DNA from: an uncultured Actinomycetes bacterium
GTDB taxonomy: Bacteria; Actinomycetota; UBA4738; HRBIN12
DNA: 64,000 nucleotides
Direction: 5' to 3'
Assembly: GCA_963828885.1 (NCBI GenBank)
Contig: CAWHGC010000010.1
Location: 28,915 to 92,914 of the forward strand
Below the pieces are notes generated by a model. That model had not been told where the DNA came from and made no database searches. It saw nothing but the letters and a program-made list of their open reading frames with translations. Shown here piece after piece: positions 1 through 14,151 of this stretch (the stretch's first letter is position 1; each line of letters opens with the position of its first letter). Made by a program: the position numbers and the translations under genes.

Positions 1-289
1 GGGTCCCGTCGATCGGGTCGACGGCCACGTCGACGCCGGGCCCCTCGCCGGTGCCGACCTCCTCCCCGTTGAACAGCATGGGCGCCTCGTCCTTCTCGCC
101 CTCGCCGATCACGACGGTGCCGTTCATCGAGACGCTGTCGATCATGAGCCGCATCGCGTCGACGGCGGCCCCGTCGGCGGCCAGCTTGTCGCCGCGGCCG
201 ACCCAGCGGCCCGAGGCCAGCGCGGCGGCCTCCGTCACGCGGACCAGCTCCATCGCGAGGTTGCGGTCGGGGCGCTCCTGGGTGCTCAC
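1..289 (-). CDS. glpX: Class II fructose-1,6-bisphosphatase GlpX, N-terminal ~96 codons (3' end beyond window edge)
   Basis: Own translation from GTG 289..287 (GGAGGA upstream): [95 protein letters not shown], a typical GlpX N-terminus. Not in ORF track because no stop lies in the window. Confidence 0.85.
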
Positions 290-314
290 GCGGGTTCCTC
301 CTGGGTCGGTGGGG

Positions 315-1331
315 TCATCCTAGCCGGGCGGCGTCGCATGCGCCCTCGCCGCGTTCGAGCAGCCCCTGCGCCTCGTACCACGCGACGGTGCGCGCGATCG
401 TGTCGCGGATCGGCGTGTACGCGAGGCCGAGCTCGCGCACCGCGCGCGAGCCGTCGTACCGATGGCCGTGCAGGAGGGTGCGCACGAGCTCGCGGCAGAT
501 CGGCGGGTCGCGCCGCGCGACGGCGCCGCCGGCCCCGCCGAGGACGCCGGCGACCGTGGCGGCCGCGCGGGGGACGCGCCGCACCCGGTGGGGCCGGCCC
601 GTCTCCGCGCGCAGGAGCCCGACCGCGTGCCGCGTGTGCAGGCTGACGCCGCTCAGCAGGTAGCGCTCGCCGGCGCGCCCGCGCTCGGCCGCCAGCAGGT
701 GCCCCCGGGTGCAGTCGTCGACGTCGACGATCGACAGGAACGTGTCGACGATCGGCAGCCGCCCGTTCATCAGGTCCAGCAGCAGGCGCGCCGAGCCGCC
801 GGTCCGCCCGGGCCCCTGCACGGAGGACGGGTTCACGCTCACGACCTCGACGCCGAGCTCGCGGCCGAGGGCGAGGACCTCGCGCTCGGCCAGGTACTTC
901 GACTCCTCGTAGTTCGACAGGAACTAGCCCCGGTGCGGGGAGTCCTCGCGGCCGACCGTGCCGGCGGCCTCGCCGATCGCGGCCGCCGACGAGGTGTGCA
1001 CGACGCGGGCGACGCCGGCCTCGGCGGCGGCCCGGACGACGTTCGCCGAGCCCTCCACGTTCGTGCGCATCATCGGTCCGGGGTCGCGCAGGCACATCGC
1101 GTTGACGCCGCCGGCGTGGAAGACGAGGTCGCAGCCGCGCATCGCGTCGGCGAGCGACGCGGCGTCGTCGAGGTCGCCGCGCACCGTGTCGGCGCCGGCG
1201 GCCTCCAGGGCGGACGCGGCCCGGTCGCTGCGCGCGAGCGCCCGCACCTCGCGGCCCTCGGCGAGCAGCCGCGCGACGATCGCGCCGCCCACGAACCCCG
1301 ACCCGCCGGTGACGAGGACCGGCGACGTCAC
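315..1331 (-). pseudogene. NAD-dependent epimerase/dehydratase (SDR family), one frame break near 900-925
   Basis: Rossmann N-terminus VTSPVLVTGGSGFVGGAIVARLLAEGREVRAL in frame of ORF 924..1553. C-terminal half lies in ORF 315..842 (FLSNYEESKYLAEREVL... upstream of its Met, ...YTPIRDTIARTVAWYEAQGLL). The two parts join only with a 1-nt shift. GTG 1331 sits in a GTGA overlap. Confidence 0.8.
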
Positions 1332-1926
1332 GGCAGGCGGCGTTCGCGCCGGTGCCGAGGACGTGGAAGAGAACACGCCGGCGAACCGGGCGAGGTAGTC
1401 GACGGCGGAGCCGATCGTGAACGCGGCGGCCACCAGCATCGCCCACTGGTCGGGGTACAGCGGTCCCAGCTTGCTGGAGGTCCGCACGATCGCGAGCGTG
1501 ATGGCGACGAACTGCACGGCCGCCTTCAGCTTGCCCCAGATCGAGGGCCGCATGACGGTGCCGTCGGCGGCGATCGCGCCGCGCAGACCCAGGATGAGGA
1601 TCTCGCGGCCGATGATGAGGAACGCGATCCACGGCGACGCGCGGCCGACCGAGACCAGGGCGACCAGCGCGCCGGCGACGAGGAGCTTGTCGGCCGTCGT
1701 GTCGAGGAACGAGCCCGAGGTCGGTCGTCTGCTGCCACCGCCGCGCCAGCAGACCGTCGAAGAAGTCGGTGGCGGCGGCGAGCGCGAACAGCACGGCGCC
1801 GATCACGTAGGCGTACTGCACCCGGTCGCCGGCCAGCACCAGCGCCATCACGACGGGCACCAGCGCGATGCGCAGGTACGTGATGCCCTGCAGGAAGGCG
1901 TTGGCTCGTCGGTCCGGCGTGCTCAT
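1328..1926 (-). pseudogene. pgsA: CDP-diacylglycerol--glycerol-3-phosphate 3-phosphatidyltransferase (CDP-alcohol phosphatidyltransferase), frame break near 1728 and probably one in the 3' tail
   Basis: MSTPDRRANAFLQGITYLRIALVPVVMALV...ATDFFDGLLARRWQQTTDLG (frame of ORF 286..1926). It continues in another frame as SFLDTTADKLLVAGALVAL...GREILILGLR...MRPSIWGKLKAAVQFVAITLAI (ORF 924..1553). 3' end is uncertain. Confidence 0.8.
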
Positions 1927-1963
1927 CGAGGTCGAGCGTAACAGCGGGCCCGCGGCGCCCGGG

Positions 1964-4556
1964 TCAGGCCTCGCCGGCGAGCAGCGAGCGCACGGCGGCC
2001 GCGTCGGGCAGACCGAGCGCGGCCGACGCGAGCGCGCGGGCCTCGACGGCGCTCGTCGAGCGCACGGCGCGCTTCACGAGGGCGATCGCCGGCGCCGACA
2101 TCGAGAGCTCGCGCACGCCGAGGCCGAGCAGCAGCGGCGTGGCGGCCGGATCGCCCGCCATCTCGCCGCACACGCCCACCCACCGCCCTGCGGCGCCGGC
2201 GGCCTCGCACGTGGCGGCGATCAACCGGAGCACGGCCGGGTGCATCGCGTCGGCGAGGTCGGCGACACGCGCGTTGCCGCGGTCGGCGGCGAGGGTGTAC
2301 TGCGTGAGGTCGTTCGTGCCGATCGAGAAGAAGTCGGCGAGGGGCGCGAGCGCGCCGGCGATCAGGGCCGCGGCCGGCACCTCGATCATGACGCCGACCT
2401 CGAGGTCCTCGCGCGGCGGCGGGTGACCGGCCGCCTCGAGGTCCGCCCGCGCCCGGTCCAGGGCCTCCCGCGCCTCGCGCAGCTCGTCGCACCGACGCGA
2501 CCATGGGGAACATCAGGCGGATCGGATGGTGCGCGGCCGCGCGCAGGATCGCGCGCAGCTGGGTGCCGAGGACCTCCGGCATCGCGAGACCCAGGCGGAT
2601 GCCGCGCACGCCGAGGAACGGGTTGTCCTCGCGGGGCTGCGCGAGGTACGGCACCGGCTTGTCGGCGCCGACGTCGAGCGTGCGCAGCAGCAGCGGTCGG
2701 CCGCCCAGGGCCTCGCCGGCCGCCTCGTAGGCGGCGGTCTGCTCGTCCTCGTCGGGCATCCGGTCGCGGCCCATGAACAGGAACTCGGTGCGGAACAGGC
2801 CGACGCCGTCGGCGCCGTTCTCGAGCGCCGCCGCGATCTCGACCGGCAGGCCGATGTTGGCGGCGACCTCCACGGCACGCCGTCGAGGGTGACGGCCGGG
2901 CCGGCCGCCTCCCGCCGCGCGGCCTCGAGGTCCTCCCGCCGCCGCCGCTCGCGTGCCGCGCAGCGCCGACAACAGCTCCGGCCCGGGATCCACGACGACG
3001 TCGCCGGTGCCGCCGTCGACGGCGATCGGCGTGCCCTCGGCGACGTCGAGCAGACGCGGGACCGGCGCCGACGACGGCCGGGATGCCGAGCGACCGCGCG
3101 AGGACGGCGGTGTGCGAGGTCGGGCCGCCGGCGGCCGTCGCGATGCCCGTGACGATCTCGGGGTCGAGGCCGGCGGTCTCGGCGGGGGAGAGATCGGCGG
3201 CGACGAGCACACCGGGCCCCTCCGTTCGCGGTGGTCCGAGCGGCGCGCCGACGAGGTGCGCGAGCACCTGGTCGCCGACGCTGCGCAGATCGGCGGCCCT
3301 CGCGCGCAGGTAGTCGTCGTCGAGGTCGTCCCACGTGCGCGCGAGCCGCTCGATCGTGCCGGCCCACGCGCCCTCGGCCGTGCCGCCCCCGTGCACGGCC
3401 GCACGGGCCGGCTCCAGGATGTCGGCGTCCTGCAGGAAGAGCAGGTGCGCGTCGAAGATGGCGGCCTCGTCCTCGCCGGCGCGGGCGGCGACGGTCGTCC
3501 GCTGCGCGGCGATGTCGGCGCGCGCGGCCTCGACGGCACGCTCCAGGGCGGCGAGCTCGCCGGCGACGGGGCCGGCCTCGCGGTCGGGCACGGTCACCGT
3601 CGCCGGGTGCAGCCGACGCGCCGGTCCGACGGCGACGCCCGGCGAGACCGCGAAGCCGCGCAGCCGGCCGTTGGCGGAGCCCGGCGCCGGCTCGGGCACC
3701 GTCGCCGCCGGTGCGCCCGGCGCCTCGTCGAAGTTGCGGGCGGCGAGCGCCGCGACCGCGTCCAGCGCCGCGCGGGCCTGGGGCCCCGAGGCCGACACCT
3801 CGATCTCGTGGCCCGTGCGCACGCCGAGCGTGGCGACCGCATTCAGGCTGTGCGCGTCGGCGGGCCCGCGCGAGGCCGTCAGGTTGCGGACCTCGACGTG
3901 CGCGTCGAACGACGAGGCCACCTGCACCAGCCGCGCCGCCGGTCGCGCGTGCAGGCCGTGCTCGTTGCGGACCGTGATGCGGATCGCATCGGCCGGCTCC
4001 GCCGAACGGCCCGCCGCAGGCTCGGCCGCCGAGGCCTCCTCCACCCCGAGGTGCGCGAGCTTGCCGGCGAGGCCGCCGCGTGCCTCCCGCGCGACGGCCT
4101 CGAGCGGGGAGCCGAGCTTCGCCGTCACGGCGGCGGCGACGGCGCCCTCCACGAGCGGCGCCTCGCAGAGCATGACGCCGGCGCGGCGCTCCTCGGGCAG
4201 CAGCTCCAGCGCCATCTCCGCAGACAGCACGGCGCTGCCGAGGTCCATCAGCACCAGCACGCCCTCGGGCGACCACGCCCGCTCGACGGCCCCCGCTCCT
4301 CGGGCAGCAGCTCCAGCGCCATCTCGGCCGACAGCACGGCGCTGCCGAGGTCCATCAGCACCAGCACGCCGTCGGGCGACCAGGCGCGCTCGACGGCCGA
4401 CATCACCATGACGGCGTCGGTGCCGATCGGGTGGTCGGGCAGGTCGAGGCCGCCGGCGGTCTCGATGCGCACGTCCGGCCCGCCCATCTGCCGCGCGAGC
4501 TCGGCGACGCCCTCGGCGAGCGCGTAGCTGTGCGAGACGATCACGATGCCGACCAT
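1964..4556 (-). pseudogene. dhaM: Multidomain PTS phosphotransfer protein: DhaM-type EIIA(Man)-like + HPr + full-length Enzyme I. Disrupted by a 107-bp tandem duplication and at least 4 further frame breaks
   Basis: MVGIVIVSHSYALAEGVAELARQMGG...LVLMDLGSAVLSAEMALELL (DhaM N-domain). IRITVRNEHGLHARPAARLVQVASSF (HPr). GGPTSHTAVLARSLGIPAVVG (EI His domain). GLFRTEFLFMGR and SIGTNDLTQYTLAADRGN (EI PEP-utilising barrel, ORF 1964..2389). The pieces lie in three frames. Confidence 0.85.
4187..4398. repeat. Tandem direct duplication, two 105-bp copies (4187..4291 and 4294..4398), period 107 bp, 5 mismatches
   Basis: Read directly: cgctcctcgggcagcagctccagcgccatctc[c/g]gc[a/c]gacagcacggcgctgccgaggtccatcagcaccagcacgcc[c/g]tcgggcgacca[c/g]gc[c/g]cgctcgacggcc. 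Both copies encode ERAWSP(E/D)GVLVLMDLGSAVLSAEMALELLPEE. Confidence 0.95.
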
Positions 4557-4930
4557 CACGCCCGCCCCGCCAGCACGCCGATCAGCACCAGCCCGTAGAC
4601 GACCGTGACGACGCCGAGCACGACCACGCCCGGCCGCACGAGGCGCGCGAGCCGCGGCGGCAGGTCGAGGTCGAGCGCCACCGCGCGCAGGCCGAGCATC
4701 GCGTGCCACGTCACGACGACGAGGAACACGGCCTCGATCACGAAGATGACGGGGTTCCCGATGTACTCGAGGACCTGCTCGTACGTGCGAAGACCACCGA
4801 TCTCCTGCACGACGAAGTGGTGCGCGACCATGTGCACGGTCACGAGCACCAGCAGCGCCATGCCGGTGAACGCGGTCGACAGCCACGAACGCGGCCGCCC
4901 GCCCGAGGTCGCGCCCGGCCCGGCCGCCAT
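4556..4930 (-). CDS. Small hydrophobic membrane-anchor subunit, succinate dehydrogenase/fumarate reductase SdhD-like
   Basis: 124 aa, MAAGPGATSGGRPRSWLSTAFTGMALLVLVTVHMVAHHFVV...VTWHAMLGLRAV, three predicted TM helices with His residues. ATGA overlaps on both sides (4928-4932, 4554-4558). Confidence 0.6.
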   Translation of the reverse strand: MAAGPGATSGGRPRSWLSTAFTGMALLVLVTVHMVAHHFVVQEIGGLRTYEQVLEYIGNPVIFVIEAVFLVVVTWHAMLGLRAVALDLDLPPRLARLVRPGVVVLGVVTVVYGLVLIGVLAGRA

Positions 4931-5361
4931 CACTCGGTCCCCAGCAGGTGCAGGGCGGCGCCGATCAGCAGGATGGCGCCGAACGTCATGAGCGACCAGA
5001 AGAGCGCGCGCTGCCGGTCGGCGGCGAGGCCGGACCCCACGAGCGCCACGCGCAGGCCGTTCAGCCCGTGGAACAGCAGCCCGAAGATCAGCAGCACGTC
5101 GAGGCCGAGGAAGGCCGGCGTGGTCGCGAGGCGCAGGAAGCCGTGCCAGGCGGACTGCCCGCGCAGCAGCATCGACAGGACGGCCAGGTGCAGGTACAGG
5201 TAGAAGACCAGGCCGAGGCCGGTCACGCGGTTCAGCGAGAACGCCCAGTGACCGACGGCGCCGCGGCGCACGTCCAGCCACGCGGTGGGCCCGGGCGCCT
5301 TGCGCAGCACCGGCCCGCGAGCGCGGCGGACCTCGCCGGGATCCAGTGGCTCGGAGCTCAC
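4930..5361 (-). CDS. Cytochrome-b-type membrane subunit, SdhC-like
   Basis: 143 aa from GTG 5361 (GTGA overlap with upstream stop): ...GHWAFSLNRVTGLGLVFYLYLHLAVL...LLIFGLLFHGLNGLRVAL..., polytopic. C-terminal part of composite ORF 4930..7032. Confidence 0.6.
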   Translation of the reverse strand: MSSEPLDPGEVRRARGPVLRKAPGPTAWLDVRRGAVGHWAFSLNRVTGLGLVFYLYLHLAVLSMLLRGQSAWHGFLRLATTPAFLGLDVLLIFGLLFHGLNGLRVALVGSGLAADRQRALFWSLMTFGAILLIGAALHLLGTE

Positions 5362-6063
5362 GACGACGCCCCCAGCCGGCGGCGCGTGAGCTCGCGCCGC
5401 AGCTTCATGATGCGCTGCGCCGGGAAGACCTCGGACGGACAGGCCTCCGTGCACTCGAACGCGGCGTGGCACTGCCAGGCGCCGTGTTCGTCGTCGGCCC
5501 ACTCGAGCACCGCGTCCACGTCCTCGCCGCGCGGCTCCTCGAGCACGCGCTGCGCCCACGCGAGCGCGGCCGGCCCGACGTAGCGGTCGTCGGTGGCGGC
5601 GATCGGACACGCCGACAGGCACAGGCCGCACTCGATGCAGTCCTCGAACCGCTCGGGGTCCTCCATCGGTGACCATCGCTTCCCCGCCCACCCGCTCGCT
5701 CAGCCGCAGCAGCGGGTGCTGCGGCGGGAAGCGCTCGACGAAGGGTCGCATGTCGACGACGACGTCGGCGAGCACCGGGATGTTGGCGAGCGGCTCGACC
5801 GTCACGGTGTCGGTCGTCACCGGCGTCACGCACGCGAGACCCTCGCGCCCGTTCACGCGCACGCCGCACGTGCCGCACGAGGCGTGGAAGCAGCTGTGGC
5901 GGATCACGAGCGAGCGGTCCGCGTGCACCTCGATCCAGCGAAGGCCCTCCAGCACCGTCGAGGCCTCCCCGGCCGGGACGTCGAACTCGTCGACGTGGCT
6001 CGGGCCGTCCTCGCGCCGGAAGCGATGCACCCGGAATCGGCGGGTGACGGCGTCGGCGCTCAT
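5358..6063 (-). pseudogene. Succinate dehydrogenase/fumarate reductase-type iron-sulfur subunit (SdhB/FrdB-like), one frame break near 5668
   Basis: N-half MSADAVTRRFRVHRFRREDG...RHSCFHASCGTCGVRVNGREGLAC (2Fe-2S motif). C-half ORF 5358..5666 has FEDCIECGLCLSACP and CHAAFECTEACP cluster motifs. ATGA overlap with glpA stop at 6060-6063. Confidence 0.8.
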
Positions 6064-7238
6064 GCGGCGTACAGCGCCGTGTGGGGGAGCAGCACCGTCT
6101 CTCGCGTCCGGCACGGCTCGTCGACGCCGAGCTTGCGGCAGACGACGTTCGCGCAGTGCTCGGCCATGCCGCGCAGCGTCGTCGCCTTGCCGCCGGTGAT
6201 CGTGACGAAGCCCTCCACGCCCTCGGCGGCGTGGTCGATCGTCTCGAAGGTGCGCGAGAGCTCGCGGCCGGAGTCCGCGTCGTCGCGCGAGCCGATGAGC
6301 GGGCGCGCGGCCGACCACGCGGCGCGGAACGGCGCGTCGCGCACGGCCGGGATCAGGTGCGCGCCCTCCTCGCGCATCCGGCGGACGTGATCCTCGGGCA
6401 CGCCGAGGTCGTCGGGGTCGGTGACCGACCACGAGCTGGTGCCGACGACGCTGAGGGCGCGCTGCGGCACCACGATGTCGCCGTCGCCGGAGCGGTGCAG
6501 CCGGTTCACGACCATCGTGCACAGGCGCCCGCGCAGGGCCACCATCACGCCCGGCGACGGGCGGATCGGCACGTCGACGCCGGCCATCGTCGCGATCTGC
6601 TCCGACCACGGACCGGTCGCGTTCACGACGAGGTCCGCCCGGATCTCGCCGTCGCGGCCGCTCACGCGGTCGTGGTAGGCGATCCCCTGCACCGCGCCGC
6701 CGCCGGTCAGCAGGCCCGTGACCTCGAGGTGGTTGAGCAGTTCGGCGCCGCCGGCGCGCGCCGTCGCGAAGAAGCGGAGCGGCATGCGCATCGCGTCCAT
6801 CGTGGCGTCGGGCACGCGCACGGCCGCCCGCAGGTCCGGGTTCAGCAGGGGCTCCAGGCGCAGGGCCTCGTCGGGCGTCAGCTGCTGCGCGGGGATGTGG
6901 CTGGCCGCACAGCCCTCGAGGAACGCCGGCAGGTAGTCCATGTCCTCGTCGGTGACGGCGACGAACAGCCCGTCGTTCTCCTCGAACGACCCCGGCGCGA
7001 TGCGGCGCAGGATCGTGTTCTCCTCGATGCACTCGACGGCCGACTCGTGGTCGTTGACGGCGTAGCGCGCACCGCTGTGCAGCAGCCCGTGGTGACGGCC
7101 GGTCGTGCCGGACGTGAACTCGCCGCGCTCGACGAGGGTGACCGCGAGGCCGCGCAGCACGAGGTCGTGCGCGAGCGCCCCGCCCGTGCCGCCGCCGCCC
7201 ACGATGAGGACGTGGGCCGGTGCCGAAGAGCTGGACAT
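6060..7238 (-). CDS. glpA: FAD-dependent glycerol-3-phosphate dehydrogenase, GlpA-type catalytic core (392 aa, no C-terminal BFD-like domain)
   Basis: MSSSSAPAHVLIVGGGGTGGALAHDLVLRGLAVTLVERGEFTSGTTGRHHGLLHSGARYAV...ITGGKATTLRGMAEHCANVVCRKLG is collinear with E. coli GlpA as I recall it. Ends soon after the CRKLG...C region. Confidence 0.85.
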   Translation of the reverse strand: MSSSSAPAHVLIVGGGGTGGALAHDLVLRGLAVTLVERGEFTSGTTGRHHGLLHSGARYAVNDHESAVECIEENTILRRIAPGSFEENDGLFVAVTDEDMDYLPAFLEGCAASHIPAQQLTPDEALRLEPLLNPDLRAAVRVPDATMDAMRMPLRFFATARAGGAELLNHLEVTGLLTGGGAVQGIAYHDRVSGRDGEIRADLVVNATGPWSEQIATMAGVDVPIRPSPGVMVALRGRLCTMVVNRLHRSGDGDIVVPQRALSVVGTSSWSVTDPDDLGVPEDHVRRMREEGAHLIPAVRDAPFRAAWSAARPLIGSRDDADSGRELSRTFETIDHAAEGVEGFVTITGGKATTLRGMAEHCANVVCRKLGVDEPCRTRETVLLPHTALYAA

Positions 7239-7281
7239 CGCGCGGAGTATCGCACGGGGCTCCGAGCCGCTCACCGGGGCC

Positions 7282-7533
7282 TCAGTGCTCGTGGTGCTCC
7301 CGCTCCTGGCCCTCGGCGTAGTCGCCGGCCGGCCTCTCGTGGTGTTCCTCGTCGGCCTCGCCCTCGGCGAAGGTGCCCGTGTGCTCGGCACCCCCGGAGG
7401 GATGATCCTCGGCCTCCTGGCCCTCGGCGAAGTCCCCGCGGTGCTCGCGCTCGGGGTGGTGCTCCTCGTCCTCCTGTCCCTCGGCGAAGGTGCCCTTGTG
7501 CTCGTGCTCCTCGTCCGGTGTCCGCTCGGTCAT
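7282..7533 (-). CDS. 83-aa His/Glu-rich repeat miniprotein (four G-[TD]-[FY]-A-E-G-[QE] repeats), unknown function
   Basis: ATG 7533 preceded by GGAGG: [83 protein letters not shown]. It is the tail of composite ORF 7282..9141, between glpK and glpA. Confidence 0.65.
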
Positions 7534-7604
7534 GTCGCCTCCGCTCGTGTGTGGGTGGCCGGGCCGGCGGCGGGCGGGCCCCCACCACCGGCCCGAACCT
7601 CTCG

Positions 7605-9102
7605 TCAGTCGACCCAGTCGAAGGTGCGGGTGACGGCCCTCTTCCACATCGCGTACTGGGCGTCGCGGGTGGCCGCGTCCATCGACGGCGTCCACTCCTT
7701 GTCCTTGCCCCAGTTCGCGCGCAGGTCCTCGACCTCGGCCCAGTACTTCACGGCGAGGCCGGCCGCGTACGCCGCGCCGAGCGCCGTCGTCTCTGCCACC
7801 TTGGGCCGGATCACCGGCACGCCGAGGACGTCGGCCTGGAACTGCATCAGCAGCTCGTCGAAGACCATGCCGCCGTCGACCTTCAGCGCCGTGAGCTCGA
7901 CGCCGGAGTCGGCGTCCATGGCGTCGACGACCTCCTTCGTCTGCCAGGCCGTCGCCTCGAGCACCGCGCGCGCGATATGGCCGGCGTTCACGAACCGGGT
8001 CAGGCCGGCGATCACGCCTCGGGCGTCGCTGCGCCAGTACGGCGCGAACAGCCCGGAGAAGGCCGGCACGAAGTAGACACCGCCGTTGTCGTCGACCGTC
8101 TTCGCCAGCGCCTCGACCTCCTCGGAGGACCCGATCATCTTCAGGTTGTCGCGCAGCCACTGCACGAGCGCGCCGGTGATGGCGATCGAGCCCTCCAGCA
8201 TGTACGCGGCGTCCTGGTCGCCGATCTTGTAGCCGACGCCGGTGATGAGGCCGCTCTTCGACGGGACCGGCGAGGTTCCGGTGTTCAGCACCAGGAAGTT
8301 GCCGGTGCCGTACGTGTTCTTGGCCTCGCCGGCCGAGAAGCAGGTCTGGCCGAACAGCGCCGCCTGCTGGTCCCCGAGGTCGCCCGCGACCGGCACGCCG
8401 GCCGAGCTCGCCCGTCGCCTCGCCGTACACCTCGCTCGAGGACCGGATCTCCGGCAGCACGGCGCGCGGGACGCCGATCGCGTCGAGGTTCGCCTGGCTC
8501 CACTCGAGCGTCTTCAGGTCCATCAGCATCGTGCGGCTGGCGTTCGTGACGTCGGTGACGTGCACGCCGCCGTTGGGGCCGCCCGTGAGGTTCCAGATCA
8601 CCCATGTGTCGATGTTGCCGAACAGCAGCTCGCCGGCCTCGGCGCGCGCCCGCGCGCCGTCCACGTTGTCGAGGAGCCACCGGATCTTCGGTCCCGAGAA
8701 GTACGTGGCGATCGGCAGGCCGGTGCTGGGCCGGAACCGGTCCTGGCCGCCGTCGGCCATGAGCTCGTCGCAGATCTTGTCGGTGCGCGTGTCCTGCCAG
8801 ACGAGCGCGTTGTGGATCGGGACGCCCGTCGCCTTGTCCCACACCACCGTCGTCTCGCGCTGGTTCGTGATGCCGACGGCCGCGAGGTCGCTCGCCTGCA
8901 GCTTCGCCTTCTGGAGGGCGCCCTTCACCACCTCCTGCGTGCGCGTCCAGATCTCGTTCGCGTCGTGCTCGACCCACCCGGCCTTCGGGAAGATCTGCTC
9001 GTGCTCCTTCTGGTCCACGCCGATCACCGTGCCGCCGTGATCGAAGATCATGAACCGCGTGCTCGTGGTGCCCTGGTCGATCGCACCGACGTAGTCAGCC
9101 AT
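7605..9102 (-). pseudogene. glpK: Glycerol kinase, one frame break near 8398-8403
   Basis: [24 protein letters not shown]...[11 protein letters not shown] (frame of ORF 7282..9141), then [18 protein letters not shown]...TRTFDWVD (ORF 7605..8396). An extra C in CTCGGCCGGCGTG explains the shift. Confidence 0.92.
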
Positions 9103-9119
9103 TGCCGGGCCTCCCTCGT

Positions 9120-9761
9120 TCAGTTGTCGGCGTCGCCCCACGTCCGGGCGGCGGTGTCGAGTAGCAGTGTGGAGGAGGTGGCGCCGGGATCCTGGTGCCC
9201 GGCGCTGCGTTCCCCCAGGTAGCTCGCGCGTCCCTTGCGGGCGACGAGCGGGATCGTGGCGAGCATGCCCTCGCGGGCGGCGTCGGCCGAGCGCCGCAGG
9301 CCGTCGGCGAACGACGCGCCGTCGGCGACGGCCTTGTCGAGGGCCTCGACGGCCGGCAGCAGCGCGTCGACCATCGTCTTGTCCTGCGGCTCCGCCTTGC
9401 CACGAGCCTGCACGCCCTGGACCGCCGCGCGCAGCGCGGCGGTCCAGTCCTCGAGCGTGATCTGCGTCTTGCCGGCCGTCGCCGCGCCGAGCTGGAGGAA
9501 CAGCGTCCCGTACAGCGGGCCGCCGGCGCCGCCGACCGTCGACACGAGCGTCATGCCGACGGTCTTCAGCAGCGACCCGATGTCCTCGGGCGCCGTACCG
9601 TCCAGCTTGGCCAGCACCGCCTGCATGCCACGGTCCATGTTGATGCCGTGGTCGGCGTCGCCGATCGCGGAGTCCAGGGCGGTCAGCTCCTCCTTGCGCG
9701 CCGAGATCTCCCCGGCGACCGCCCGGATCCAGGCGACGACGTCGTCGGTGTCGACCGTCAC
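9120..9761 (-). CDS. dhaL: Dihydroxyacetone kinase ADP-binding subunit DhaL
   Basis: GTG 9761 (GTGA overlap with dhaK stop): [45 protein letters not shown]...[21 protein letters not shown]. Confidence 0.9.
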
Positions 9762-10759
9762 ACGCCCCACCGCAGGCCGGCGGTCTTCACCGGCGCGTCC
9801 CACAGCTTCGTGAGCTCGTCGTTCAGCTTCAGCAGCGTGATCGAGCAGCCCGCCATCTCGAGCGAGGTGATGTACGAGCCGATCAGGTTGCGGGTGATCT
9901 TCACGCCACGCCCCTGGAGGTACTTGTTCAGCTCGTTGTACACCACGTACAGCTCGATCAGCGGGGTGCCGCCCATGCCGTTGACGAACGCGAGGACCTC
10001 GTCGCCCTTCGCGAACGGCAGGTCGTCGACGATCGGGCCGGCCATCGTCTCCACGATCTCGTGCACGGGCGCGAGCTTCCTGCGCTCGCGTCCGGGCTCG
10101 CCGTGGATGCCGACGCCGATCTCCATCTCGTCCTCGCCGATGTCGAACGTGGGCTTGCCGGCGGCCGGCACCGTGCACGAGGTGAGCGCCATGCCCATGC
10201 TGCGGCCTCGGGCGTTCACGTCCCGCGCGACGTCCGCGACCTCCTTCAGCGGGCGCCGTTCCTCGGCGGCGGCGCCGGCGATCTTCTCCAGCAGCACCGT
10301 GGTGCCGACGCCGCGGCGGCCGGCCGTGTACAGGCTGTCCTGCACGGCCACGTCGTCGTCGACGAGCACGGACTCGACCTCGACGCCCTCGGCGCGGCAC
10401 AGCTCCGCCGCCATGTCGAAGTTCATCACGTCGCCCGTGTAGTTCTTCACGATGTGCACGACACCGGCGCCGCCGTCGACGGCCTTCGTCGCCGACTCCA
10501 TCTGGTCGGGCGTCGGGGAGGTGAAGACCTCGCCCGGGCAGGCCGCGTCGAGCATGCCCATGCCGACGAACCCGCCGTGCATGGGCTCGTGGCCGGAGCC
10601 GCCGCCCGAGACCAGGGCCACCTTGCCCTGCACCGGCGCGTCGGCGCGCAGCACCGTGTACGGGTCGTACGTGACCTTGATCAGGTCCGCGTGCGCCGCC
10701 TCCATGCCCTGGAGTGCCTCCCGTACGACGTCGGCCGGGTCGTTGATCAGCTTCTTCAT
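9758..10759 (-). CDS. dhaK: Dihydroxyacetone kinase DHA-binding subunit DhaK
   Basis: Intact 333-aa ORF: [20 protein letters not shown]...[20 protein letters not shown]...[12 protein letters not shown]. Confidence 0.93.
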
Positions 10760-10785
10760 CGCTTCGCCTCCTCAGGTCGTCGTGT

Positions 10786-11519
10786 CTAGAAGTGTCCGAA
10801 CGCGGCCGCGCCGAGGATGCCGCCGAGGGCGCCACCGATCAGCGGGCCGACGACGGGGATCCACGAGTAGCTCCAGTCCGAGCCGCCCTTGCCGGGGATC
10901 GGCAGGATCGCGTGGATGATGCGTGGCCCCAGGTCGCGGGCCGGGTTGATCGCGTACCCCGTCGGACCGCCGAGCGACAGCCCGATGCCGAGCACGAGCA
11001 GGCCCACCAGCAGCGGCCCGAGGCCGGCCGACAGGCTCGCCGTTCGGGTCGCCGCCGATCTTGAAGATCGCGTACACGCCGAAGACCAGCACGAAGGTGC
11101 CGATGACCTCGGTGATCAGGTTCGCGACGGTGTTGCGGATCGCGGGGCCGGTGGAGAAGACCGCGAGCTTCAGGCCCGGGTCCTCGGTCTCGCCCCAGTG
11201 CGCGTAGTACGCCAGCCACACGAGGATCGCGCCGATGCCGGCGCCCGCGAACTGGCCCCCGAGGTACTCCGGTACCTTGCTCCACGGCAGGTCGCCGGCG
11301 GCCGCCTGCCCGATCGTGACGGCCGGGTTCAGGTGCGCGCCGCTCTTCGTGGCGGCGAACACACCGATCATCACGCGCGATCGCCCAGCCGAAGGTGATG
11401 ACGATCCACCCGGAGTTCTGGGCCTTGGACTTGTTGAGCAGCACGGCCGCGACCACGCCGTCGCCCAGCAGGATCAGGAGCCCCGTCCCGATCATCTCCG
11501 ACACGAACGTGCTGTCCAT
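10786..11519 (-). pseudogene. glpF: Glycerol uptake facilitator (aquaglyceroporin, MIP family), two frame breaks (~11375, ~11035)
   Basis: Three collinear pieces: [21 protein letters not shown]...ITFGWA / [19 protein letters not shown]...[10 protein letters not shown] / [33 protein letters not shown]. Both NPA boxes are present. Confidence 0.9.
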
Positions 11520-11635
11520 GACACCCCCTTGCTCCGGGCCCGCCGACGGGGCCTCGCCTATCGAGCAGGCTCGGTCGTTCCCACAACCGTCGTCAAGACG
11601 TCACATCGCCGAAACGTATGCGAAACTGCCGCGAC

Positions 11636-11658
11636 GTGTTCGGCATCGCCGAACACGG
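11636..11658. promoter_or_regulatory. Perfect inverted repeat cGTGTTCGGC-ATC-GCCGAACACg in the glpF / dhaL2-iclR divergent intergenic region; candidate IclR-type operator
   Basis: 10-bp arms read directly. A related half-site ATCGCCGAAAC lies about 30 bp upstream (~11604-11616). Confidence 0.4.
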
Positions 11659-11751
11659 GCACGACGGGCGACGACGCCCGAGTTGACAGCGCGGAGGTCC
11701 GAGTCGATGGTGGCCGAACCGGGAGTTCCCGACCGGGCAGGAGGCGCGGCG

Positions 11752-12406
11752 ATGCGCGTGGACGAGGTCGTGCTGGACACCGGCTTCGTCCAACGATGGC
11801 TCGACGAGGCCGCCGCGCAGATCCACCGCAACCGGGACTTCCTGACGCAGCTCGACGCCGCGATCGGCGACGCCGACCACGGCGTGAACATGGACCGAGG
11901 CTTCTCGGCGGCGCGGGACGGCCTCGTGGTCGGGGTGCGCGACGACGCCGGGCGCCCTGCTCGACCAGGCGGGCGCAACGCTGGTGCTGCGGGTCGGCGG
12001 CGCGGCCGGGCCGCTGTTCGGCACCGCGCTGCGCCGGGCGGCCGGCGCGCTCGGCGAGGCCGAGATCCTCGACGGCGAGACGCTGCTGCGCGCGATGCGT
12101 GCCGGCCTCGACGGCATCCAGCGGCTCGGCGCCGCGGTCGAGGGCGACAAGACGATCGTCGACGCGTACGCGCCGGCGATGCTCGCGTTCGAGCGCGGGC
12201 TCCGCGGTGGGCGCGACGTCTCGTCGGCTGCGGTGAAGGCGGCGGCGGCGGCCGACGCCGGTGCGCGGGCGACGGTGCCCATGCAGGCCCGGAAGGGCCG
12301 GGCGTCGTACCTCGGGCCGCGCAGCATCGGGCATCAGGATCCGGGGGCGACCTCGACGGCGCTGCTGTTCGCGGCTCTGGCACACGCCGTCGGCGATCGG
12401 GAGTGA
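11752..12406 (+). pseudogene. Second DhaL-domain (DAK2) protein, one frame break near 11940-11955
   Basis: ATG 11752 after GGAGG: [51 protein letters not shown]. Then ORF 11984..12406: ...LRVGGAAGPLFG...[21 protein letters not shown]. Confidence 0.85.
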
Positions 12407-12425
12407 CCCTGCGGCAGGTGCGGGC

Positions 12426-13231
12426 ATGGTGACGTCGGCGCCGAACCGGCGCGGCACGATCCAGTCGGTCGATCGCGCGGCGCGGATCCTGCGCGAGCTC
12501 GGCTCGGGCACGGCGCGGCTCGGCGTGACGGAGATCGCCGAGCGGCTCGGGATCGCGAAGGCGACGATCTACGGCCTGCTGCGCACCCTCGAGGCGCAGG
12601 AGTTCGTCGAGCAGGACCCCGAGACCGGCAAGTACCGCCTGGGCCCGGCGATGCTCCAGCTCGGCAACGCGTTCCTCGACAACCACGAGCTCCGGTCGCG
12701 CTCCGTGCTGTGGGCGGACTCGCTGGCGACGCGCACCGGCGAGGCCGTGCGCATCGGCGTGCTGAACGGCGAGCACGATGCTGATCGTGCACCACGTCTT
12801 CCGGCCCGACGACTCCGTGCAGATCCTCGAGGTCGGCGCCTCGATCCCGTGGCACGCCTGCGCGCTCGGCAAGGCCAACGTCGCGTACGTGGAGTCGGTC
12901 CGGCGCGACGCCCTGCTGGCGGGCGCGCTGCCGGCGCTGACCGGCCGGACGATCACCGATCCCGCACGCCTGCGCGAGGAACTCGTGGCGGTGACGCGCG
13001 AAGGGTTCGCCCTCGAGGACGAGGAGGCGATCGTCGGCGAGGCCGAGATCGCCGCGCCGGTGTTCGACCATCGGGGCATGGCGGCCGGCGCCGTCGGCGT
13101 CGTCGGGCCCGGTCGAGCGGCTGGCGCCCGGTGGCACGGCCACGGCCGCCCTCTCCGCCGCCGTGCGCGAGGTCGCGCGCGGCCTCTCCCGCGACATGGG
13201 CGCCGGTCGGGTGGCCGCGCGGGGCGGATGA
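12426..13231 (+). pseudogene. IclR-family transcriptional regulator (GylR-like by context), two frame breaks (~12775, ~13105)
   Basis: MVTSAPNRRGTIQSVDRAARILRELGSGTARLGVTEIAERLGIAKATIYGLLRTLEAQEFVEQDPETGKYRLG. Effector domain in ORF 12778.. (ILEVGASIPWHACALGKA...EEAIVGEAEIAAPVFDHRG). Tail ...REVARGLSRDMGAG in a third frame, ending in an ATGA overlap. Confidence 0.85.
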
Positions 13232-14151
13232 GCCCCGAGCTCTCCCGACGTCACGGCAGCCTGCTCGTCCTCGGCGTGCTGGCGGTGTCGTTCTCCGCCG
13301 TGCTCGTCCGGCTCGCCGGCGACACGCCGAAGCTCGCCATCGCGTTCTACCGCTGCGGCATGGCGGCGGCGGTGCTGGTGCCCCTCGCGGTGCTGCGGCA
13401 CGGCGACGAGCTGCGCGGGCTGACCACGCGGCAGTGGCGCCTGGCCCTGCTGTCGGGGGTGTTCCTCGCCGCGCACTTCGCCACGTGGATCCCCTCGCTC
13501 TCGTTCACGAGCGTGGCGGCGAGCTCGGTGCTCGTCACCACGCAGCCCCTGTGGGTGGCGCTGTTCGGCCCGATCATCGGCGAGCGGCCCTCCCGCCGGG
13601 CGCTGGCCGGCATCGGCGTCGCGATGGCCGGCACGCTCGTGATCGCCGGCGGGGACTTCGGCGGGTCCGGACGGGCGCTGCTCGGCGACGCCCTCGCGCT
13701 GCTCGGCGCGATCTTCGCCGCCGGCTACGTGCTGTCGGGCCGGAACCTGCGCCGACACATGTCGGTCGTGCCGTACACGGCGGTCGTGTACGGGACGGCG
13801 GCCGCCATCCTCGCGGTCGTGCTGCTCGTGACCCGCACGCCGTTCACGGGCTACGAGCCGAAGGTGTGGCTGATCTTCGTGCTCATCACGATCGGCCCGC
13901 AGTTCCTCGGCCACACGGTGTTCAACTACCTGCTCGGCCACGTCGAGGCGTCGGTCGTCGCCATCGCCGTCATGGCCGAGCCGGTCGGCGCGACGCTGCT
14001 GGCGCTCGTGATCCTCGGCGAGGCGCCCTCGGCGGCGACGGTGGCCGGCGGCGCCCTGATCCTCGCCGGCATCTACCTGGCCATCGCGCGCAGCAACCGC
14101 GACCGAGCTGCTCGAGTCGCCGGTGGACTAGCGCGCATTTCTACGCGTTGA
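13228..14151 (+). CDS. EamA/DMT-family transporter
   Basis: MSPELSRRHGSLLVLGVLAVSFSAVLVRLAG... about 10 TM segments, two EamA-like halves. Part of ORF 12778..14151. Confidence 0.8.
   Translation: MSPELSRRHGSLLVLGVLAVSFSAVLVRLAGDTPKLAIAFYRCGMAAAVLVPLAVLRHGDELRGLTTRQWRLALLSGVFLAAHFATWIPSLSFTSVAASSVLVTTQPLWVALFGPIIGERPSRRALAGIGVAMAGTLVIAGGDFGGSGRALLGDALALLGAIFAAGYVLSGRNLRRHMSVVPYTAVVYGTAAAILAVVLLVTRTPFTGYEPKVWLIFVLITIGPQFLGHTVFNYLLGHVEASVVAIAVMAEPVGATLLALVILGEAPSAATVAGGALILAGIYLAIARSNRDRAARVAGGLARISTR

Follow-up and report, generated by a model that had tools for sequence, protein, structure and literature searches.

A truncated GlpA flavoprotein and a complex-II-type iron-sulphur and anchor module as a predicted glycerol-3-phosphate:menaquinone oxidoreductase in glycerol operons of uncultured bacteria

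Respiratory oxidation of sn-glycerol 3-phosphate (G3P) in bacteria is taught as the work of either GlpD or GlpABC. A locus on contig CAWHGC010000010.1, from an uncultured Actinomycetes bacterium, raises the question of where a GlpA-like flavoprotein might deliver its electrons when it is encoded next to relatives of the succinate dehydrogenase subunits SdhB, SdhC and SdhD. We analysed a 64-kb stretch of this contig (the window; ~73% G+C), in which the four genes lie one behind the other on the minus strand: a glpA-like gene (6060..7238; ATG at 7238, TGA at 6060), an sdhB/frdB-like gene for an iron-sulphur (FeS) protein (5358..6063; ATG at 6063, TGA at 5358), an sdhC-like anchor gene (4930..5361; GTG at 5361, TGA at 4930) and an sdhD-like anchor gene (4556..4930; start at 4930 or 4933, TGA at 4556). 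The genes are tightly coupled, with an ATGA overlap at 6063/6060 between glpA and sdhB, a GTGA overlap at 5361/5358 between sdhB and sdhC, a GTGATG junction at 4933-4928 between sdhC and sdhD and, towards the dhaM gene that follows, a TGATG junction at 4558-4554, where the dhaM start ATG at 4556 shares its A with the sdhD stop. A preliminary description of this DNA, whose coordinates and start/stop overlaps for the four genes match the sequence, had predicted a G3P:quinone oxidoreductase built on the chassis of complex II. Protein families, cofactor ligands and gene order support this prediction, and we put the probability that the four proteins form a membrane-bound, four-subunit G3P:menaquinone oxidoreductase, GlpA-SdhBCD, at roughly 78%.

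The first gene encodes a flavoprotein of 392 amino acids (404 if translation begins at an in-frame GTG at 7274, the start that gene callers pick in close relatives) that consists of the DAO-fold flavin adenine dinucleotide (FAD)/G3P domain alone. It has a GxGxxG-type FAD domain with a DAO fold and a GlpA-type sequence: the GlpA equivalog model TIGR03377 matches it with 433 bits (E = 1.5e-129), and it shares 41% identity with residues 26-386 of Escherichia coli GlpA over 362 residues. The protein terminates at a position equivalent to residue ~395 of E. coli GlpA. Indeed, the TIGR03377 match covers model positions 1-378 of 530, and the flavoprotein has no match to Fer2_BFD (Pfam PF04324), which E. 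coli GlpA carries at 432-484, in agreement with the earlier reading of a GlpA-like protein without the BFD-like domain. In the alignment, the motifs H54-x-G-x-R58-Y59, R312-P-L and G349-G-K351 are invariant with both E. coli GlpA and GlpD. Their GlpD counterparts are H50/R54/Y55, R317 and K354, which we take to be substrate-binding residues, the alignment itself speaking for their positions and their conservation. An AlphaFold2 model of the flavoprotein reaches a mean predicted local distance difference test score of 94.7, and its nearest folds in the PDB are GlpD and GlpO, with TM-scores of 0.82-0.86 when normalised to the query and ~0.6 when normalised to the longer targets. Neither by sequence nor by fold did we find a GlpA or GlpABC structure in the PDB, just the GlpD and GlpO relatives.

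The FeS protein encoded by the second gene has to be read across a frame break, to which we return below. The repaired protein carries Fer2_3 and Fer4_8 domains and scores 170 bits against the SdhB/FrdB model TIGR00384 (cut-off 88); its best relatives in the PDB are SdhB of Mycobacterium smegmatis Sdh2 (6LUM_B, 2e-32) and E. coli FrdB (1KF6_B, 8e-32), and the TfrB model NF004898 matches it as well (E = 1.3e-35). Its ligand motifs are Cx4Cx2Cx11C, Cx2Cx2Cx3CP and Cx5Cx3CP, and the sequences that had been quoted for them, CFHASCGTCG(x11)C, CIECGLCLSACP and CHAAFECTEACP, were all located. Each cluster ligand maps onto a ligand of E. coli SdhB, and H199 maps onto SdhB H207; judging from the Cx5Cx3CP motif, the third cluster should be of the 3Fe-4S type found in classical complex II. 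All 11 cluster cysteines are kept in 75-76 of 76 relatives. With E. coli proteins as queries (tblastn), no homologue of GlpB or SdhA was detected in the 64-kb window or in 80 related loci, and a true GlpC was likewise missing from both; similarity to GlpC in the window is confined to the part of the sdhB-like gene that encodes the ferredoxin segment, and the GlpC match of the FeS protein (E = 1.4e-10) covers no more than this segment. The reported absence of glpB, glpC and SdhA from this DNA thus holds for the whole window.

The third and fourth genes encode small proteins of 143 (SdhC-like) and 124 amino acids (SdhD-like), each with three hydrophobic segments in hydropathy plots, taken as three transmembrane helices. 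Both exceed the Pfam Sdh_cyt gathering score of 25.8 (35.9 bits for the SdhC-like and 37.3 bits for the SdhD-like protein), which agrees with their first description as hydrophobic, His-containing subunits resembling SdhC and SdhD. In 6LUM, haem bD is held by His D65 and His C47, and haem bP by His D107 and His C87 (PMC7447783). The SdhC-like protein aligns with 6LUM_C without gaps (E = 2.7e-11), placing H58 on His C47, the distal haem position, and H98 on His C87, the proximal one. When the SdhD-like protein is aligned to the paralogous 6LUM_C, its H33 and H76 fall on haem-ligand positions. Compared with the E. coli enzyme, SdhC R31 and H84 correspond to R45 and H98 of the SdhC-like protein, and SdhD H71 and D82 to H76 and D87 of the SdhD-like protein. 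R45, H58, H98 and R104 of the SdhC-like protein are invariant in 75 of 75 relatives, as are H33, H38, H76 and D87 of the SdhD-like protein in 76 of 76. In both subunits, the candidate haem-ligand histidines lie in helices I and II. Since four invariant histidines are found in the anchors, and not two, a dihaem anchor is expected; from these alignments it looks to be of type A rather than of the single-haem kind.

To place the locus among its relatives, we scanned one genome per species, which gave 161 relatives, and used the best 80 as loci (L001-L080). All 80 are metagenome-assembled genomes (MAGs): 59 from Actinomycetota/Actinomycetes, 20 from Chloroflexota (Ardenticatenaceae, Anaerolineae and Chloroflexia) and one labelled 'uncultured bacterium'. 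Downstream of glpA, an sdhB-like gene is present in 79 of them, sdhC in 77 and sdhD in 75, and the cases that depart from the full glpA-sdhB-sdhC-sdhD order are contig ends, with the single exception of L058, described below. Start and stop codons overlap by 4 or 1 nt at 46 of 78, 64 of 76 and 42 of 75 junctions, counts that are upper estimates because the choice of starts favoured those near the upstream stop. The gene dhaM-EI is present in 73 of the 80 loci. Two findings had been named beforehand as able to overturn the prediction, a gene order that relatives do not share and downstream proteins belonging to families unrelated to complex II. The order is kept in about 75 of the 80 loci and in a distant relative at 48% identity, and the three proteins fall into complex-II families (TIGR00384, Pfam Sdh_cyt, 6LUM). 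The operon of ~9 kb is common to Actinomycetota and Chloroflexota MAGs in the same gene order, at 71-74% GlpA identity. Its presence in both phyla suggests that the complete cassette may have been transferred between them. No cultured carrier of the operon was found among the 80 loci and the named matches of two protein searches, all of which are MAGs, including Candidatus Promineifilaceae.

On this basis, a path for the electrons can be proposed. GlpK would make G3P, and the truncated GlpA flavoprotein would oxidise it to dihydroxyacetone phosphate (DHAP) on its FAD, which is presumably also the physiological direction of the reaction. As this GlpA has no BFD-type 2Fe-2S cluster and no GlpB/GlpC partner, its FAD would hand the electrons to the 2Fe-2S cluster in the N-terminal ferredoxin domain of the complex-II-type FeS subunit, from which they would pass to the 4Fe-4S and on to the 3Fe-4S cluster of the same subunit. 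The electrons would then enter a heterodimeric six-helix anchor, in which two b haems with bis-His ligation are predicted to be bound, as in the type A anchor of mycobacterial Sdh2, and would reduce a quinone, probably menaquinone. The midpoint potentials of G3P/DHAP and menaquinone are about -190 mV and about -74 mV, respectively, so that G3P:menaquinone oxidoreduction is exergonic, unlike succinate:menaquinone oxidoreduction. In succinate:menaquinone enzymes, the transmembrane dihaem wire is thought to be necessary for catalysis driven by the proton-motive force; the anchor of GlpA-SdhBCD keeps this predicted wire, including the distal haem position, and its energetic role there may be a different one.

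Several points weigh against this proposal. The literature holds no biochemical or structural evidence for any GlpA-SdhBCD member. As GlpA and SdhA come from different flavoprotein families, the docking of GlpA onto the FeS subunit is an assumption. Two residues of the proximal quinone site of E. coli succinate:quinone oxidoreductase are lost (SdhB W164 is A156 here, and SdhD Y83 is L88), which makes the quinone site uncertain. Pairs of a GlpA core and an SdhB-like protein also exist without anchors, so the pair is apparently able to work without SdhCD. Finally, the FeS gene is frame-broken in the window and, if the break were real, the present copy would be dead.

This last point bears on the most serious of the alternatives. 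The preliminary description had read the FeS subunit as one gene, silently joining two halves that lie in different frames. The 2Fe-2S half extends from 6063 to ~5668, in a frame that continues into sdhC, and the 4Fe-4S/3Fe-4S half (~5696 to 5358) lies in the +1 frame, which is open only after a TGA near 5699; for a full-length protein a +1 frame change is required at about 5697-5662. The gene is in a single frame in relatives at 94%, 93% and 88% identity. Compared with two intact ones, L082 (a soil-metagenome contig, 94% identical) and L081 (a contig, 93% identical, with all operon genes intact), the window has a net surplus of 1 nt in a length-variable acidic linker (5691-5662). A further contig, L095 (98% identical), stops 180 nt into sdhB, short of the linker. 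Programmed frameshifting was considered and rejected, given the single frame in the three relatives and the position of the break in a length-variable acidic linker. We also rejected a truly split gene encoding two polypeptides: the upstream frame runs for ~100 out-of-frame codons into sdhC without meeting a stop, and no relative with a split gene was found.

Alternatively, the operon might be decaying, with real breaks that leave functionless pseudogenes at this locus. In fact, sdhB is not the only glycerol gene affected. Relative to the intact L081 genes, glpK is broken at ~8403 (in tblastn, the intact 498-aa GlpK of L081 gives two pieces in different frames), glpF twice at ~10962-11274 and the dhaM-HPr-enzyme I (EI) fusion three times, at ~2500, 3054 and 4290. 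The dhaM gene is further disrupted by a tandem duplication at 4187-4398 (107-nt unit, 2.0 copies, 95% match) that doubles the '...VLVLMDLGSAVLSAEMALELLPEER' segment; not being a multiple of 3, the 107-nt unit shifts the frame, and it is absent from L081. However, genes outside glycerol metabolism are broken too, namely the IclR gene twice (~12768 and ~13108) and the gene for a CDP-alcohol phosphatidyltransferase (1350-1926; break at ~1714), and a second Dak2 gene is broken at ~11942, so that ~11 breaks fall in 14 kb (window 1-14000) and affect functionally unrelated genes. The pieces between the breaks retain 71-97% amino-acid identity to L081 and contain no in-frame stops, and the L082 and L081 genes are intact. 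Breaks scattered over unrelated genes, together with the high identity within each frame, point to indel errors of the assembly rather than to pseudogenes or programmed frameshifting. Such a pattern is typical of high-GC assemblies that contain indel errors. The break in sdhB is thus most likely an assembly indel and not biology, the 107-nt duplication in dhaM is probably an assembly artefact as well, and decay of the operon appears unlikely. With ~11 frame breaks in its first 14 kb, readings of the window that are based on open reading frames need care.

A second alternative accepts the genes as functional and questions the substrate: the flavoprotein might oxidise another compound, such as a phosphorylated polyol or a 2-hydroxy acid, with the complex-II module as its quinone reductase. 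The flavoprotein does score below the cut-offs of the GlpA equivalog models (TIGR03377, 433 vs 552.8 bits; NF008313, 370 vs 425 bits), enzymes of the DAO family are diverse in substrate, and more distant pairs of truncated GlpA and SdhB occur in contexts unrelated to glycerol. The shortfall in the TIGR03377 score is, however, accounted for by the missing C-terminus of 150 residues; per matched position, the flavoprotein reaches 1.15 bits, compared with ~1.04 at the cut-off. The motifs attributed to substrate binding are invariant with GlpA and GlpD, and glpA stands right after glpK, inside the order glpF-dhaKL-glpK-...-dhaM, in 72 of the 80 loci. Taken together, the GlpA profile, the shared motifs and the glpK gene directly upstream support G3P as the probable substrate, and a different one is quite unlikely. 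That the SdhB-, SdhC- and SdhD-like proteins instead serve a succinate or fumarate enzyme whose SdhA is encoded elsewhere, glpA being an incidental neighbour, is highly improbable: all three are bona fide members of complex-II families, but neither the 64-kb window nor any of the 80 loci, within 6 kb, contains an SdhA/FrdA homologue, relatives retain the start/stop overlaps with glpA, the linkage holds in both phyla and at identities as low as 48%, and the loss of the BFD 2Fe-2S cluster from GlpA coincides with the gain of a partner that bears a 2Fe-2S cluster.

The surroundings of the GlpA-SdhBCD genes are those of glycerol use. The wider operon, kept in both phyla, reads glpF-dhaK-dhaL-glpK-(83-aa protein)-glpA-sdhBCD-dhaM/HPr/EI and joins the kinase route (glpF, glpK, glpA-sdhBCD) with a dihydroxyacetone kinase that depends on the phosphotransferase system (PTS; dhaK and dhaL, 9123-10759). 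On the minus strand of the window, glycerol kinase, the supplier of G3P, is encoded at 7608..9102 (glpK, frame-broken as described), and the PTS phosphoryl donor of the dihydroxyacetone kinase, a DhaM-HPr-EI triple fusion of 833 aa in L081, at 1973..4556. A second DhaL-like (Dak2) gene lies divergently on the plus strand (11752-12403) and adjoins the gene for the IclR regulator. The comparison with L081, which spanned window positions 1-14000, showed no glycerol dehydrogenase, and a search with Rfam at the gathering threshold returned no riboswitch or other RNA element anywhere in the window. Between glpK and glpA, a gene on the minus strand (7282..7533), preceded by GGAGG, encodes the 83-aa protein, which is rich in His and Glu and very acidic; it is made up of about four repeats of the form G-(T/D)-F-A-E-G-Q/E-x-(D/E)-E-H-H with a period of 57 nt. 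This protein has no match in Pfam or NCBIfam; L081, L082, L095 and 18 of the 80 genome loci encode it in the same position. It may assist the dehydrogenase as a metal-binding or chaperone-like accessory.

Truncated GlpA proteins are not confined to this operon. Among representatives at 50% identity we found many clusters of GlpA-like proteins that are 379-411 aa long and 39-54% identical, alongside canonical GlpA forms of ~520-560 aa with a BFD domain. The relative at 48% identity mentioned above, P0123, has the order glpK-glpA-sdhB-sdhC-sdhD on a sediment contig of 53% GC and retains the same four histidines. In others, an SdhB-like partner is present without anchors: P0121 (50%; L086 5001-6937) adjoins a gene for a GFO/IDH/MocA oxidoreductase, and P0127 (45%; L090 4001-5883) is followed by oxaloacetate decarboxylase genes. 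An SdhB-like partner also follows in P0122 (52%), there just before the contig end, and in P0129 (46%), there before the gene for an unknown protein; behind P0124 (47%), another DAO-family gene begins and is cut off by the contig end. A further variant is L058 (5998-8795 on the Actinomycetota MAG contig CAVOHJ010000004.1), in which a truncated GlpA, 75% identical to that of the window, precedes a single protein of ~533 aa that fuses an SdhB-like half (Fer2_3, Fer4_8) to a CCG domain of the TfrB/GlpC-like kind; no SdhC or SdhD gene follows the fusion gene in L058, and no glycerol genes lie nearby. Three outputs can thus be told apart: a dihaem SdhCD anchor, present in the window, in the distant lineage from sediment and in about 75 species of Actinomycetota and Chloroflexota; a CCG domain fused to the SdhB-like half, as in L058; and no anchor, as in L086 and L090. 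These variants would fit the tentative idea, for which we see somewhat less than even odds, that the truncated GlpA core and its SdhB-like partner are a portable two-gene dehydrogenase cassette with at least three outputs, in which the complex-II FeS subunit is a general socket for a flavoprotein other than SdhA, and that they represent an unrecognised bacterial class of respiratory G3P dehydrogenases.

The preliminary description had not recognised the architecture as characterised. Biochemically this is correct, but the architecture itself had already been predicted: on the basis of synteny, Schmerling et al. (bioRxiv 2024; Commun Biol 2025, PMC11962113, Fig. 9 and supplement) had drawn a 'GlpA-SdhBCD' complex for Thermofilum pendens, in the one work with this architecture that our full-text literature searches returned. 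The same paper confines the arrangement to archaea of the Thermofilum type and states for bacteria that glpA, in its canonical form, co-occurs consistently with glpB and glpC (PMC11962113). The system of the window is a bacterial case of an already predicted architecture and not a first; new here are its distribution in bacteria, the conserved operon context, the dihaem signature and the sister variants. Many uncultured Actinomycetota and Chloroflexota from soil, groundwater and sludge turn out to carry GlpA-SdhBCD genes in a glycerol operon that is conserved among them. This has consequences for annotating the use of glycerol and of lipid-derived carbon in these abundant MAG lineages, and the names now given to the proteins, 'FAD-dependent oxidoreductase' and 'succinate dehydrogenase' subunits, can inflate the apparent content of tricarboxylic acid cycle and complex II genes. 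The locus can also be seen as a natural experiment in which a DAO-family flavoprotein takes the place of SdhA on a complex-II FeS/haem module, its own BFD 2Fe-2S cluster exchanged for that of a partner. A structure would reveal how the complex-II chassis accepts an unrelated flavoprotein, and what the distal haem does with a donor that has no need of the proton-motive force.

Compared with known systems, the closest likeness is to T. pendens, where, by the published gene order, a GlpA-clade flavoprotein almost without a C-terminal extension (Tpen_1127) is likewise followed by SdhB-, SdhC- and SdhD-like genes, which were also proposed to serve electron transfer and membrane anchoring (PMC11962113). 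That organism is an archaeal hyperthermophile and its case was made from synteny alone, whereas the window is bacterial and the genes lie within the glpF-dhaKL-glpK-...-dhaM operon. With E. coli GlpABC, which feeds the quinone pool, the window protein shares the 41% identical catalytic domain and the same G3P and FAD motifs, but not the BFD-like 2Fe-2S domain (432-484 in E. coli GlpA); the E. coli partners GlpB (Pfam FAD_binding_2) and GlpC (two 4Fe-4S motifs and CCG domains, no transmembrane helices) are absent from the window. M. smegmatis Sdh2 (6LUM), a type A dihaem succinate:menaquinone oxidoreductase, provides the best PDB matches for the FeS and SdhC-like proteins, and what is predicted for the window matches its set of three clusters, its pair of three-helix anchors and its four axial histidines for bP and bD. 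Sdh2 differs in its SdhA flavoprotein, its substrate succinate and an extra SdhF helix, and the identity of its anchors to those of the window is low (E = 2.7e-11 for SdhC; SdhD not directly detected). The GlpA-type flavoprotein of Sulfolobus acidocaldarius GlpA-CoxG (Saci_2032/2031) is likewise truncated and lacks the BFD cluster; experiments have shown that it oxidises G3P and that it needs a separate protein for attachment to the membrane. Its anchor is a small CoxG-like protein without FeS clusters or haem, and electrons pass from FAD directly to quinone, unlike the route proposed here. TfrB and type E complex II, in which SdhB is fused to or paired with CCG proteins, are resembled by the L058 variant; the system of the window, by contrast, has no CCG domain and carries SdhC and SdhD anchors of the classical haem-binding type.

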